Positions 237 to 5,702 of a DNA stretch of 35,969 nucleotides are shown piece after piece. Each line of letters begins with the position of its first letter. Position 1 is the stretch's first letter. The stretch lies in contig CAWIDS010000002.1 in NCBI GenBank assembly GCA_963834935.1, positions 1-35,969 of the forward strand, written 5' to 3'. A program made the translations under genes and the position numbers. The notes under the pieces are model-generated. The model did not search any database. It had not been told where the DNA came from and was given only the letters and a program-made list of their open reading frames with translations. Source of the DNA: Candidatus Nomurabacteria bacterium. GTDB taxonomy: Bacteria; Patescibacteriota; Minisyncoccia; Phycocordibacterales; CALRBL01.

Positions 237-281
237 TTACTCCGCACGTGGGAGGATGTTCGGAAAAGTCTAAACCAATAA
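237..281 (+). repeat. Cassette junction motif, copy 1 (putative att site)
   Basis: TTACTCCGCACGTGGGAGGATGTTCGGAAA; reads LLRTWEDVRKSLNQ*. Confidence 0.85.
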
Positions 282-305
282 AAAAGCCCTGTCTTTCGAC
301 GGGGC
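280..305 (-). terminator. Intrinsic terminator of the cassette C gene
   Basis: Minus strand GCCCCGTC-GAAA-GACAGGGC followed by T6. Confidence 0.8.
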
Positions 306-341
306 AGGTATCCTTGAGTTGTGTGAGGAATCCCTATTGCT

Positions 342-596
342 CTAGGAAGCTGGTTTCTCATGAAGCTCTTCGGACTTGAGAAGTCGTGTGCGTTCCTGCA
401 CGCGCCAGTCGTCGTCAGGAATCGAGAGAGTCGGTGCAGTCAGCCAGCGCGGATCCACCTTCATCTCGACTCTGCCGTGCGTAATACAGTGAAGAACTCG
501 GAGACCCTTGGTAGGATTGTCTTCAATACGGGTTACATCCGGATAATAGCATCCGCATTCTGCGGCTTCTTGATTTGGAAAATAAGGTCCAGGCAT
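342..596 (-). CDS. Hypothetical protein (~84 aa, cassette C), possible Cys/His metal site
   Basis: ORF track 342..659. The better start is ATG 596 (MPGPYFPN), preceded by GAAGGGAG. Contains CxC and CxxH. A terminator lies downstream. Confidence 0.6.
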   Translation of the reverse strand: MPGPYFPNQEAAECGCYYPDVTRIEDNPTKGLRVLHCITHGRVEMKVDPRWLTAPTLSIPDDDWRVQERTRLLKSEELHEKPAS

Positions 597-748
597 TTTT
601 CTCCCTTCTATAGAAGAATTCCTCCAACACACACGTGAGGGGGAGGTCTGGGAGAACACTACAATTTATTAGAAGGAATGTCTATGATAGCTGTATGACG
701 TTCACAACGTTCACCCAGTAGGTGATTCTTCTGAATCACATGTTCACC

Positions 749-830
749 TTGCTCCGCACTTCATTGAGCACAATGACCTACTGGGTGGGAGGATGTTCGG
801 ATAGAAATTATGGGGAGAGGTGGTAAATAA
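749..830 (+). repeat. Cassette junction motif, copy 2, interrupted by a 25-bp insert (761-785)
   Basis: TTGCTCCGCACT-[25 nt]-TGGGAGGATGTTCGGATA; reads LLRT/WEDVRIEIMGRGGK*. Confidence 0.8.
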
Positions 831-881
831 AAAGCAAAACCCACTACCGGAGCAATGAGTCTTGCTTTGGTTCGTGGGTTT
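829..881 (-). terminator. Long imperfect hairpin, probable terminator of the cassette B gene
   Basis: AAACCCAC...GTGGGTTT outer stem with an inner AGCAA/TTGCT stem and a T-rich tail on the minus strand. Confidence 0.6.
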
Positions 882-893
882 GGTGGAGGTTGC

Positions 894-1195
894 CTATTCA
901 GCAACCGGTGAGCGAGTTGGAGGTCGAGACCTTCGCCAGTGAAGGCGGAGAGGACGACGTCGCGAACATACTCGTGGGGCTGGCCATCCGCACCGATAAG
1001 GGACAACCTCTTCAAGGTGTCCTCGTTGGTTCCGAATTTCTTGTATTTCGGGTCGCGCTTGCAGATCTGAACGAGGTCATAGCAGGTAGTTATCCCGCTG
1101 ATACCATCGTTCCAGAGGCTTGTGAGCGACATCATCAACACCTGAGCGAGTGGTTTTGGAACCTCCGCTCCGTTTTTCAATTTTATCATTTCCAT
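894..1195 (-). CDS. Hypothetical protein (~100 aa, cassette B), probable 1-bp deletion near 914
   Basis: ORF track 761..1195 runs through the terminator and junction motif. Restoring one base near 914 gives ...GEGLDLQLxSPVAE* with TAG at 894-896, just upstream of the terminator. Confidence 0.65.
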
Positions 1196-1259
1196 ATGCT
1201 TAAAAAGGGCAGTCTATTTGATTTTCTTCAGCTGAAGTTGTATCAGCTTCTTTATTCAA

Positions 1260-1288
1260 ATAATAACACAATTATATATAAAAAGCAA
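1260..1288 (-). promoter_or_regulatory. Sigma70-type promoter of the cassette B gene
   Basis: Minus strand TTGCTT-N17-TATTAT with a TG extension. Confidence 0.55.
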
Positions 1289-1298
1289 TGGTATGAAG

Positions 1299-1355
1299 TT
1301 GCTCCGAACTTGGGAGGATGTTCGGAGGGGAATTGTAGAAAAGGGAAGTAACTAA
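1299..1355 (+). repeat. Cassette junction motif, copy 3 (putative att site)
   Basis: TTGCTCCGAACTTGGGAGGATGTTCGGAGG, with an 8-bp inverted repeat CTCCGAAC/GTTCGGAG; reads LLRTWEDVRRGIVEKGSN*. Confidence 0.85.
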
Positions 1356-1380
1356 AAAAGTACCATCCGAAGACGGTGCT
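1354..1380 (-). terminator. Intrinsic terminator of the cassette A gene
   Basis: Minus strand AGCACCGTC-TTCG-GATGGTACT followed by a T run. Confidence 0.8.
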
Positions 1381-1414: not shown

Positions 1415-2050
1415 CTAGGCAGTTGCCAGAGGAGGCTCCTTTTTGAGTTGGCCTGATTGTCGGCTGCCCCATTCAGAGAACTTGTAAATGCCGACACAAG
1501 TGAGGAAAAGGAAGGCTCCTGTGATGATCCAAACTATTATTAAGCCCCCACAAAATGCAAATATTGAAAAACCCCACGATTTCTCGTAATGAAGGACCGT
1601 TTTGTAGTCCTCCTTCAGTACGACGCTCTCCAACATTGCCGTAGGCTCCTTGTTGCCGACGCTGTTCGTAAGGTCATCTTCGGTGACAAATTGGAAACCT
1701 CCGATTTGTGAAGAGTAATAAACCTTCCCGTCAGCGTTGAAAACGACCGTTGTAGGGAAGCGGCTTCTGCCAGCAAGTTTTCCGAAATCAACTAGCGACG
1801 GCAGGAATGTCGTCCTAATACTGCTTCCTCCTCCTGTTTTCATCCAAGGCACCTCGCCGAGAGGGTTTACAACACTCGCGTTGTAGGGTATCCATGCGGG
1901 CACTGTCCTCTCGAAGGGCTTGAAGGGTTTGAAGCAAGTGATCGCCCATTCTCTGCTAAACCATAACAGGAAGGCGAGACCGACGAGCAGGACGAGAATG
2001 ATCGGAATTTTTTGCCGATGTTCCTTTAATTTCTTTCCAATATTTTTCAT
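1415..2050 (-). CDS. Hypothetical membrane protein, 211 aa, with N- and C-terminal TM helices (cassette A)
   Basis: ORF with a GGAG RBS. Hydrophobic segments IPIILVLLVGLAFLLWF and FSIFAFCGGLIIVWIITGAFLFLTCVGIY. Confidence 0.8.
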   Translation of the reverse strand: MKNIGKKLKEHRQKIPIILVLLVGLAFLLWFSREWAITCFKPFKPFERTVPAWIPYNASVVNPLGEVPWMKTGGGSSIRTTFLPSLVDFGKLAGRSRFPTTVVFNADGKVYYSSQIGGFQFVTEDDLTNSVGNKEPTAMLESVVLKEDYKTVLHYEKSWGFSIFAFCGGLIIVWIITGAFLFLTCVGIYKFSEWGSRQSGQLKKEPPLATA

Positions 2051-2110: not shown

Positions 2111-2139
2111 ATTAAATCATCAAAATACTGTTTAGTCAA
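2111..2139 (-). promoter_or_regulatory. Sigma70-type promoter of the cassette A gene
   Basis: Minus strand TTGACT-N17-TTTAAT with a TG extension, a few bp from the tRNA 3' end. Confidence 0.55.
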
Positions 2140-2145
2140 TTTGTG

Positions 2146-2217
2146 CTCCCCCGGTAGGGATCGAACCTACGACCAATCGATTAACAGTCGATTGCTCTAC
2201 CGCTGAGCTACAGGGGA
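2146..2217 (-). tRNA. tRNA-Asn(GTT), CCA not encoded
   Basis: TCCCCTGTAGCTCAGCGGTAGAGCAATCGACTGTTAATCGATTGGTCGTAGGTTCGATCCCTACCGGGGGAG folds as a cloverleaf with anticodon GTT and a GTTCGA T-loop. Confidence 0.97.
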
Positions 2218-4082: not shown

Positions 4083-5702
4083 TCACAACATGCTTTCAGG
4101 ATTAACGTTAATGGTGACGCTCGGCGGCAGTGAAAGCAAAAGCACCGAAAGCTCTTCGGATCGCGCCGGATCTTCCCAATATTCTTTTTTTACCGAAATG
4201 AGAGCATGAAGGATATGTTGGTTGTTTTGGGTCTTGATGAACGCTGGAAATACCGAGAGCTTCCATTCTGAAAGCAGTGTGGTGATCTTCTTCATTTCTG
4301 CCGCAACTTTTTCTTTCTCTCCTTTAACGCTCAACTTGATGAAGACATTGAAAGGTGGATATCCGAGAGCCTTTCTTTCGGCGATTTCCCGCTCGTAGAA
4401 GGCATTCAGATCGTTTTTCTGCCACTCGAGAAGAAGCGGGTGCTTGATGTTCTTAGTTTGGACGATCATCTTGCCGGATACTTGCTCTTCAACATTCAGC
4501 AGCAGCCGCATGATGCGCTCGTTGATCGAGAAGTCTGGTAAAGAGAGCATGGAATCGAGCGAGATGACGCAGAACGTGCTGATTTTTTCTTTGCGATGGA
4601 GCATGAGCGGCAGAAGGGATGCTTCCGTGCCGACTGCTACTGAGTCATTGCTGATGCCGTTCTTTTTCAGAAAAGCATTCACTTCTTCCTCTGCTTTTTC
4701 TACGCCGATGCCGAATGCCTTGAGCCTCCAGCCGCCGCAAGTCAGGCATTTTTTCAGTGCCGTCTCCCTATGTCCGCAGTGGTGGCAGAGCAGATTGTTG
4801 TACTCTCCTTCTTTCTTGCTGAGGTGAAGAGTAAGCGGCGCCTGGCATCGAGTGCAAAGCACTGCTTGGCCGCAATCTTGGCAAACCAGCACGCCAGAAT
4901 GGCCCTTTCGGGTGGAGAGGATGAATATTTCCGCTGGTGAATGCTTGATTGATAGGAGTGACTTTCGCAAATCATCACCGATGATGTTGAACTTCTCGTT
5001 TTCTTTCCTTTTCAGGTCGCTGATTATCCTTTCAACTGCTGGCTTGCGGCTCTTAATGGGCAGCTTGATATTTTCAATCCGAGCCAAGCTGTCCTCGTAG
5101 CTTATCTTGATGCCAGCTTTTTCAGCGTAAATCTTGAATGCATATCGAAAATCGATGAATGGCCGCGAGATGCCTTTGTACGCGCGCGATCCATCGTTCT
5201 CGATGATGATGCGCGATGCGCTTCTTGGAATGTCGAGAAGCGAACTCGGTAGAAGAACTAAAGCATCTTTCTCCTTCTTTGTCTTTTCCTTGATTATTCT
5301 TTGCTGCATCTTTGTCGGGCAGATGACAACAGTCTTTGTTTCAGTTTCCTTTCTCTTTCCAGCTTTCAATTCATCAATGATTTTTTTGGTTAAAAATATC
5401 TTCAATGCTGCACCTGTAGTGCAGGCATGGTAGCGCGCGATTTCCTTGATTGCTTCCATAGCAGGGAGGCTGAGAAAAGGCTTAGAGACCAAGCTGCTGA
5501 CCTTTTTTAAGGCAAAATCAGCCGTTTTGAGATCGGCCTTGCGAGAGCGGGCGTCTTCGATCGAAATCACCAGGCCCTCGATCAGCTTTTTCCGAAGCGG
5601 GACTTGCACGAGTGAACCGAGCTGCACCTCGGAAGAAGTGAAATAGGTGAGGTTCTCCTTGCCGATTCCGCGCGCTATGGGAATGACAGTGATTATATTC
5701 AT
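4083..5702 (-). CDS. priA: Primosomal protein N' (PriA), reduced form
   Basis: N-terminal 3'-DNA-binding region (LTY...GSLVQVPLR), four CxxC zinc pairs, GIGVEK, LSLPDF, IVQT and ERKALGYPPF. Confidence 0.85.
   Translation of the reverse strand: MNIITVIPIARGIGKENLTYFTSSEVQLGSLVQVPLRKKLIEGLVISIEDARSRKADLKTADFALKKVSSLVSKPFLSLPAMEAIKEIARYHACTTGAALKIFLTKKIIDELKAGKRKETETKTVVICPTKMQQRIIKEKTKKEKDALVLLPSSLLDIPRSASRIIIENDGSRAYKGISRPFIDFRYAFKIYAEKAGIKISYEDSLARIENIKLPIKSRKPAVERIISDLKRKENEKFNIIGDDLRKSLLSIKHSPAEIFILSTRKGHSGVLVCQDCGQAVLCTRCQAPLTLHLSKKEGEYNNLLCHHCGHRETALKKCLTCGGWRLKAFGIGVEKAEEEVNAFLKKNGISNDSVAVGTEASLLPLMLHRKEKISTFCVISLDSMLSLPDFSINERIMRLLLNVEEQVSGKMIVQTKNIKHPLLLEWQKNDLNAFYEREIAERKALGYPPFNVFIKLSVKGEKEKVAAEMKKITTLLSEWKLSVFPAFIKTQNNQHILHALISVKKEYWEDPARSEELSVLLLSLPPSVTINVNPESML

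Follow-up and report, generated by a model that had tools for sequence, protein, structure and literature searches.

A short motif repeated beside a tRNA-Asn gene

We analysed the first 35,969 nucleotides of contig CAWIDS010000002.1 from a Candidatus Nomurabacteria bacterium (assembly GCA_963834935.1; genome G000, 670 kb in three contigs), a stretch hereafter called the window (C2:1-35969). Near its left end, three copies of a short motif alternate with small minus-strand genes next to a tRNA-Asn gene, and in related Paceibacteria the same motif forms the 3' coding end of genes for large serine recombinases (LSRs). Each copy contains the 15-mer TGGGAGGATGTTCGG (positions 249, 786 and 1311), with (T)TRCTCCGNACN directly before it (in copy 2, before an insert); none of 100 shuffles contained the 15-mer three times. 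Read in codons, the copies are TTA CTC CGC ACG TGG GAG GAT GTT CGG (237-263), TTG CTC CGC ACT (749-760) with TGG GAG GAT GTT CGG (786-800), and TTG CTC CGA ACT TGG GAG GAT GTT CGG (1299-1325). Their differences (TTA/TTG, CGC/CGA and ACG/ACT) are all synonymous changes at third positions. A short tail leads from each copy to a TAA, after which an A-run and a hairpin form a minus-strand terminator.

A scan of one genome per species returned 116 stretches with the motif. The loci on these stretches and this genome together hold 247 distinct copies with ≤4 substitutions, a set in which the search pattern itself accounts for part of the conservation. The commonest motif peptides were LRTWDDVR (123 copies) and LRTWEDVR (50 copies); the peptide was intact in 173 of the 247 copies, and several others had in-frame stops. 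The main features at the locus are as follows.

237..281, plus strand: motif copy 1; core and putative attP-type half-site at 237-263, orphan codons KSLNQ, TAA at 279-281; fits the consensus of the 247 copies
749..830, plus strand: motif copy 2; TTGCTCCGCACT at 749-760, 25-nt insert at 761-785, TGGGAGGATGTTCGG at 786-800, tail IEIMGRGGK, TAA at 828-830
1299..1355, plus strand: motif copy 3; motif at 1299-1325, orphan tail RGIVEKGSN, TAA at 1353-1355
2128..2157, plus strand: tRNA junction; left flank ..AGTCAATTTGT (flank class a, see below), shared core GCTCC, then putative attB-type half-site
2145..2217, minus strand: tRNA-Asn(gtt), the proposed integration target (Rfam tRNA, 70.8 bits)

The insert puts the two parts of copy 2 out of frame with each other and moves the core away from the half-site. 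At the tRNA junction the putative attB-type half-site is the acceptor and T-arm of tRNA-Asn read antisense, and the motif frame reads GTG CTC CCC CGG TAG (2143-2157), that is, VLPR*. No long open reading frame (ORF) feeds the motif frame in the window, where the plausible genes are on the minus strand. On that strand the tRNA-Asn gene is followed by three units; in each of them a gene has an AT-rich region upstream and a terminator downstream, and the motif, reverse-complemented, comes last. Given this layout, the window copies are intergenic and not translated within a gene.

The motif is the 3' end of serine recombinase genes in relatives

ORFs from 123 sequence sources were clustered, and the most recurrent family was a serine recombinase, present at 16 loci. 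The motif was preceded, in its own frame, by LSR coding sequence in 10 of the 247 copies, which come from related Paceibacteria, so that gene and site overlap directly in these relatives. Three of the ten are long ORFs (486-584 aa) with Resolvase and Recombinase domains.

L086: LSR of 584 aa, ending ..FSTMLRTWDDVRTDILERK*
L136: LSR of 507 aa, ending ..PNWLRTWDDVRMSLL*
L056: LSR of 486 aa, ending ..PIWLRTWDDVRKVIIEEK*

Of the other seven, C-terminal remnants are left, with about 61-153 codons of LSR frame that is recognisable or open (L016, L039, L052, L065, L091, L111 and L116). Remnants beside the motif are thus graded, from three codons (STM) in copies on contig C1 of this genome, through about 60-150 codons, to full length. 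Pfam assigned both the Resolvase and the Recombinase domain to all six long ORFs tested, and Zn_ribbon_recom scored above its cut-off in three of them (L136, L040 and L068; L056 reached 21.8 bits against a cut-off of 25.3). A phmmer search of PDB sequences with the L136 LSR gave no match at E <= 0.001. The last 11 residues were identical in LSRs that are just 24% identical overall, which fits a shared DNA module.

Recombinases beside a tRNA gene carry a different tail

The LSR of L115 ends in ..FSTMLPG*, with its stop inside a tRNA-Asn gene (5444-5516) that is followed by HPF and fmt, as in the window. It is 47% identical to the LSR of L086, and the two are colinear as far as FSTML, after which L115 continues with PG* and L086 with RTWDDVRTDILERK*. 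This swap of tails is therefore read directly from the DNA of relatives. The LSRs of L040 (..LLRG*) and L064 (..NWLGR*) run into the same 3' sequence of tRNA-Asn, and that of L068 runs into antisense tRNA-Ala.

Both kinds of tail recur among database homologues. Within the best 120 of 254 matches to the L136 C-terminus, 59 had tails of ≤3 aa (RG, PR, GR and the like) and 36 had long tails resembling antisense tRNA (..QGSNLRP..); the remainder comprised 14 motif-type tails, seven others and four matches without the anchor. The 23 matches to the L086 C-terminus included five motif-type tails, 12 two-residue tails and six others. From the DNA of L115, L040, L064 and the window we infer that the short database tails are antisense tRNA; PR*, the tail that an LSR would gain at the window tRNA, occurs among them.

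These results bear on several claims of the preliminary description of this DNA. The letters of the three copies, the tails KSLNQ*, IEIMGRGGK* and RGIVEKGSN* with a TAA abutting the terminator, VLPR* at the tRNA-Asn and the lack of a long upstream ORF in frame were all found in the window sequence as given there. Its proposal that an att arm overlaps the 3' end of a recombinase gene is borne out by the LSR coding sequence ahead of the ten copies, including the three long ORFs, and its remark that large serine recombinases of CPR (Candidate Phyla Radiation) bacteria have similar ends was correct, given L086, L136 and L056. The predicted swap between LLRTWEDVR and a tRNA-antisense tail is what distinguishes L115 from L086, with database homologues of both tail kinds.

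Several other features were seen at these loci. A second family of long tails has ..PLVDKFRTANW....SLQN in place of LRTWDDVR (P0015, P0029, P0050, P0100, P0124, P0125 and P0134), which suggests a second type of element-side arm. A LOOT RNA (Rfam RF03000, 85.4 bits) lies at L115:2093-2210 on the minus strand, inside the LSR-bearing unit adjoining tRNA-Asn. Group I introns (Rfam Intron_gpI) were found in tRNA-Asn at L040:5491-5839 (minus strand, 63.3 bits) and at 2389-2639 of L151 (G001:C3; plus strand, 58.7 bits). ARAGORN missed the tRNA-Asn gene in L040 because the intron interrupts it, and in G001 a 173-aa ORF with Cys/His motifs overlaps the intron region. G001, of the same genus as G000, was considered as an empty site and rejected; its tRNA-Asn is intron-bearing and has other genes alongside, with neither motif nor LSR, and it is not a clean unoccupied site.

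Anatomy of the site

Positions in the site were indexed with the C of CTCC as 0. Junctions between an LSR and the motif and junctions between an LSR and a tRNA (L115, L040 and L064) agree only as far as ..(A/T)TGCTCC or TGGCTC, in which TGG CTC (W L) corresponds to the tRNA 3' end ..GAGCCA read antisense. The sequence common to both junction types is (T)G(G)CTCC, so the exchange point would have to lie there. To the right of this core the motif is near-invariant as far as index 24, partly owing to the search pattern. Outside the pattern, the conserved positions were -1 (G, 93%), +24 (A, 84%), +31 (T, 98%) and +34 (T, 75%); each of the two T positions is the second base of a codon for a hydrophobic residue, with variable third positions on either side. 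The tails of the 247 copies show a length peak at 4-10 codons. In the 99 copies that depart from the seed pattern, the 271 mismatches fall 44, 54 and 173 times on first, second and third codon positions. Judged by these patterns, the site sequence appears to be under two constraints, one on the DNA and one that is codon-like.

The pentamer TCGAA occupies index 20-24 of the motif and index 15-19 of the antisense tRNA-Asn sequence, that is, 5 bp further from the core in the motif, although a chance match is possible. Rutherford et al. (PMC3783163) describe the same 5-bp shift for serine integrases, whose zinc-ribbon motif is more distant from the centre in attP and closer to it in attB. On the strength of this agreement we take the motif as the probable P' arm and the tRNA as the probable B' arm.

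The tRNA likeness also admits another explanation, in which the 3' end of tRNA-Asn was duplicated, as the target is in a classical tRNA island, the motif copies are what decay has left of these duplicates, and the LSR frames through them are incidental. Islands at tRNA genes usually bear repeats of the tRNA 3' end, and the motif shares with antisense tRNA-Asn the series GCTCC, T.GGGA and TCGAA. However, the motif is far more uniform than the adjoining tRNA-Asn acceptor stems (CCCCGG, CGTGGG or GGGAGG), the offset of TCGAA between motif and tRNA is a constant 5 nt, and conservation continues, with codon periodicity, for about 20 nt past any likeness to the tRNA. Duplicates of a tRNA end would also leave unexplained why LSRs only 24% identical share an end peptide. 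We therefore regard this explanation as very unlikely.

Arrays, flanks and cargo

The copies are on one strand in all 62 loci with more than one copy, and 20 of 22 tRNA-Asn genes have the arrangement of the window, with the gene antisense to the nearest motif and downstream of it; array polarity and linkage to tRNA-Asn are both direct observations in the relatives. Units are mostly single genes spaced 0.3-3 kb, and cargo families recur across arrays in both orientations relative to the motif. HPF and fmt recur at 10 loci each. The open stretch upstream of the motif has a median of nine codons among the 247 copies. In the window, the units contain the following.

287..304, minus strand: terminator hairpin of the unit 1 minus-strand cargo, read by eye and absent from the terminator scan list; the A-run at 281-286 is the minus-strand T-run
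342..659, minus strand: candidate cargo ORF of unit 1, 105 aa (ORF list); a 92-aa plus-strand ORF is also open, and the gene call is uncertain
656..748, plus strand: left flank of copy 2 (flank class c); box ACACTACAATTTATT at 656-670, TTCAC repeats at 701-705, 710-714 and 743-747
761..1195, minus strand: cargo ORF of unit 2, 144 aa as listed (ORF list)
831..868, minus strand: terminator of the unit 2 cargo (terminator scan)
1362..1377, minus strand: terminator of the unit 3 cargo (terminator scan)
1415..2050, minus strand: 211-aa cargo ORF with hydrophobic stretches, in the unit nearest the tRNA (ORF list)

The three cargo ORFs (342-659, 761-1195 and 1415-2050) had no Pfam match and no homologue among the other motif loci. 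The unit 2 ORF has no stop ahead of its terminator, and its frame is open across the hairpin and motif copy 2. An inverted repeat of 25 nt (712-736 and 763-787, 84% complementary) brackets the left part of the copy 2 motif, and the box ACACTACAATTTATT is also found ahead of motif copies on contig C1.

Four kinds of sequence were found to the left of the motif.

Class a: GTCAA
Class b: GGTTCGAAC with a covarying hairpin (52 of 247 copies)
Class c: three TTCAC repeats
Fourth case: the 3' end of an LSR gene

The flank to the left of the tRNA belongs to the same classes, which indicates that units are delimited at the core and that either the tRNA or the motif of another unit can follow. Mosaic pairs of copies point the same way: 16 shared the left flank alone, three the right flank alone and none both, with homology stopping within index 0-25, and we read these pairs as units reassorted at the motif.

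The class b module is about 60 nt long and lies left of the core (for example in L029, L132 and L113); it comprises GGTTCGAAC, the covarying hairpin, which stands between an A-run and a T-run, and, further left on the opposite strand, a TGnTATAAT-like box. It looks like a cartridge of terminator plus promoter, to judge from its sequence, and is found directly left of tRNA-Asn in L033, L045, L075, L099, L105 and L112. The class c flank consists of three TTCAC/TGCAC repeats, 8-9 nt apart, which abut the core in nine of the 247 copies and at two tRNA junctions (window 701-747; L055, L137, L130, L120 and L049) and could be a binding site for an accessory protein. In L055 just 73 nt separate the motif from the tRNA.

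Distribution of the motif in this genome and in relatives

The genome holds nine copies, eight of which fit the search pattern; the ninth is window copy 2, split by its insert. Six copies lie outside the window, namely an exact one at C1:426243 and five variants within the first 3.6 kb of C1. The preliminary description had allowed the motif only synonymous variation, which holds for the three window copies and fails in the larger set: the C1 variants read ..EDVG or LHTWKNIR in the motif frame, both non-synonymous, and in-frame stops occur among the 247 copies.

Contig C1 opens partway through a tandem array whose repeat is about 1615 bp long. It has motif variants at 326, 1941 and 3557 in one series, and 895 and 2510 in another, and a prepilin-type ORF (Pfam N_methyl) and a 132-aa ORF without a Pfam match are found in every repeat unit. 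Since a contig end cuts off both this array and that of the window, the assembly probably shows less than the true array. A join of the first 5 kb of C1 to the start of the window, which would make a single array, was considered; synteny with G001 instead ties the other end of C1 to the window neighbourhood. The lone copy at C1:426243 (region C1:424205-426267) is 2 kb downstream of tRNA-Gln(ctg), after a 107-aa ORF for a hydrophobic small membrane protein; a transposase-like ORF, so called from its translation alone, lies between the tRNA and this copy.

The motif was absent from the six other genomes of the family and present in five of 401 genomes of the order, G000 included, where the reversed control pattern gave no match. 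Among the 80 stretches listed from the scan, all except four short contigs were labelled as Patescibacteria-group, Saccharibacteria or unclassified bacteria. The viral_contigs collection held no match to the motif pattern, and phage and plasmid collections held none to a 63-nt query of motif plus tail. In public reads, one soil run had 0.17 of the sampled words, and three runs gave unitigs of about 150 nt and tRNA fragments but no joints, which has no bearing on excision.

With their small units in one orientation the arrays look like integron cassettes, the motif sequence divides into two arms (..CGAAC / GTTCG..) about a short centre, and the genome has one Xer-like tyrosine recombinase. One might therefore take the motif for a tyrosine recombinase site that is integron-like (attC) or dif-like (Xer), and the arrays for integron or IMEX-type stacks. 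Against this, presence in only five of the 401 genomes does not fit a chromosomal dif; no integron integrase lies at the arrays, and none was seen in the recurrent locus families; the one tyrosine recombinase sits far from the arrays (C1:348.9 kb); and the arms TCGAAC and GTTCGR, 10 nt apart, misfit the R''/R' cores of attC, RYYYAAC/GTTRRRY, which are accompanied by L''/L' and a variable centre. The most recurrent family at the loci is instead an LSR whose ORF ends in the motif, and we give a tyrosine recombinase site less credence still than tRNA duplicates. A chromosomal dif was also considered by itself and rejected, with nine copies in the genome, patchy occurrence in the order, and weak GC skew without a terminus on the three contigs.

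Another reading makes the motif a cis-regulatory element, whether as an operator located upstream of the cargo promoters or as the hairpin of a small RNA. It would suit the position of the motif, which has a terminator on one side and, on the other, the AT-rich region ahead of the next minus-strand gene. CGAAC..GTTCG also recalls the Gram-positive SOS box, and a loose Rfam search gave one match, a weak one to RAGATH-32 (248-321, 23.2 bits against a threshold of 41.8). The candidate stem, however, shows a double change in none of its six pairs, and single changes, G to A at index 4 in 20 copies and A to C at index 5 in 15, leave the pairs mismatched; cargo in both orientations, the patchy distribution among genomes and the overlap with LSR ORFs would also go unexplained, which makes this reading scarcely credible. 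That the orphan copies are translated as mini-proteins, as their short open frames of similar length ending at a stop and the often intact peptide might suggest, has next to no likelihood, given the short open stretch upstream, the lack of a consistent start codon or ribosome-binding site, the in-frame stops in several copies and the frame-shifting insert in copy 2.

A proposed recombination system

We consider it highly probable that the motif is an attachment half-site of Paceibacteria-type CPR LSRs, located inside the 3' coding end of the recombinase gene, and that its copies are junction scars of units stacked at tRNA-Asn. In this model, LSRs would insert DNA at the 3' end of the tRNA-Asn gene, with the crossover held in the short core (T)G(G)CTCC that is common to the antisense tRNA 3' end. 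The approximately 24 nt after the core (GAACTTGGGAnGATGTTCGA) would serve as the element-side, attP-type half-site, and with the next 20 nt or so would code for the C-terminal 15-17 residues, LRTW[D/E]DVRxx[I/L][I/L]..*. An LSR gene beside the tRNA would end in tRNA-antisense codons, and one beside another unit, or on an excised circle, would have the LRTWDDVR tail. Repeated insertion at the tRNA would stack units head to tail and leave one copy of the half-site at each joint. The window would then contain three such joints (237-281, 749-830 with its insert, and 1299-1355), separating small minus-strand genes, each with a terminator and an AT-rich upstream region of its own; with the recombinase genes gone, the copies there would be untranslated scars. 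Cleavage by the LSR within the core and the role of the motif as the P' arm are inferred, as are any origin and movement of units without an LSR and any effect of the tail on activity.

Several observations weigh against this model. The window has no recombinase gene of any kind, and the arrays of this genome hold neither an LSR gene nor a remnant of its body; tblastn finds only tails of 13-16 aa. The sole LSR of the genome (C1, about 274.9-276.2 kb), which is 41% identical to that of L040 over about 360 aa, is away from the arrays and has a different tail and no adjoining tRNA. About 237 of the 247 copies are orphans, and many of them have conserved left flanks unrelated to LSRs, for which simple or random decay of an LSR gene is not an explanation. 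The earlier statement that the cassettes kept only the tail fits the graded remnants and does not account for these flanks.

At the level of the site, we found no left (P) half-site that mirrors the motif in the LSR coding end or in flank classes a, b and c, and the inverted symmetry expected of an LSR site is missing. The codon-position tabulation proposed earlier did yield an excess at third positions, but this comes mostly from two of them (indexes 8 and 14, with 126 of the 173 mismatches), and no variation at all occurs at the four-fold site at index 20, which places part of the constraint on the DNA. A comparison of the variable motif positions with the flanks (16 and 3 pairs, which are not independent) did not locate the crossover. 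Neither recombination activity nor a circular form nor an empty site was observed.

A more ambitious reading, which is possible but which we think unlikely, is that the system is a gene-capture platform built on a serine recombinase, the analogue of an integron in CPR bacteria. Single-gene units with only a P' arm would be excised, reshuffled and inserted in trans at tRNA-Asn, and the rewritten C-terminal tail would set the direction, with the full LRTWDDVR form, on the circle or beside another unit, active and the tRNA stub locked. The preliminary description had likewise raised a directionality switch as a possible role of the tail.

Comparison with known systems

By analogy, the closest published precedent is the ssrA islands of Dehalococcoides and their CcrB-like serine recombinase, DsiB. 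According to McMurdie et al. (2011, PMC3146451), dsiB overlaps attL, the islands are tandem and bounded by a 20-bp repeat that copies the target, and the C-termini of DsiB are divergent. The same source describes 15 ssrA islands without an integration module, which its authors read as cis-mobilisable, and their suggestion that DsiB is perhaps complete only on the circle or beside another island (PMC3146451). On this account both systems have an LSR that integrates at the 3' end of a gene for a small stable RNA and tandem units with a boundary repeat; they differ in that the target is tmRNA there and tRNA-Asn here, and in that the repeat here, 26 to about 45 nt long, codes for a conserved peptide and is an attP-type half-site distinct from the target. 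Single-gene units also predominate here, and the hosts are CPR bacteria.

In the composite islands of the staphylococcal cassette chromosome (SCC and SCCmec), Ccr serine recombinases act at the 3' end of rlmH. The two systems have in common a serine recombinase, tandem elements, short direct repeats, some elements without a recombinase, and a repeat that overlaps a coding end (in part after PMC3146451). The coding end is that of the host gene rlmH in SCC and the recombinase's own here, and SCC has a protein-coding target and much larger elements.

The integrase of Myxococcus phage Mx8 is of the tyrosine type. Its attP lies within the integrase gene, and integration gives the gene a new 3' end, reported to alter the properties of the enzyme (PMC6070905). 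To that extent the recombinase gene here is like that of Mx8; unlike our arrays, Mx8 is a single prophage with no cassette array. Phage serine integrases (A118/LI, phiC31 and Bxb1) have the domain set in common with our LSRs, with the zinc ribbon above cut-off in three of six, and a comparable position of TCGAA, 5 bp nearer the centre on the target side (PMC3783163). Unlike theirs, the site here overlaps its own gene, has no mirrored left half-site and is accompanied by arrays of units without a recombinase.

With integrons the arrays share rows of small, mostly single-gene units, a conserved recombination site between them and a content that varies among genomes. Unlike integrons, they have no tyrosine integrase or attI, the site is no folded palindrome of the attC type, the units appear to bear their own promoter and terminator, and cargo is found in either orientation. 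In the literature, supplements being outside the search, we found no description of such a system in CPR bacteria.

Implications

The LSRs and their site constitute a defined pair of recombinase and site, with a conserved 26-nt element site and tRNA-Asn as the target, and are a candidate integration tool for CPR bacteria. They also provide a natural case in which the C-terminus of an enzyme is rewritten with each recombination event, which could reveal whether tails control the direction of serine integrases, a possibility raised for DsiB of Dehalococcoides and left open there (PMC3146451). For the Paceibacteria, the model explains a widespread repeat as the footprint of a serine-recombinase system that would stack small accessory genes beside tRNA-Asn, in CPR hosts whose genomes are very small and which have few known ways of acquiring genes.

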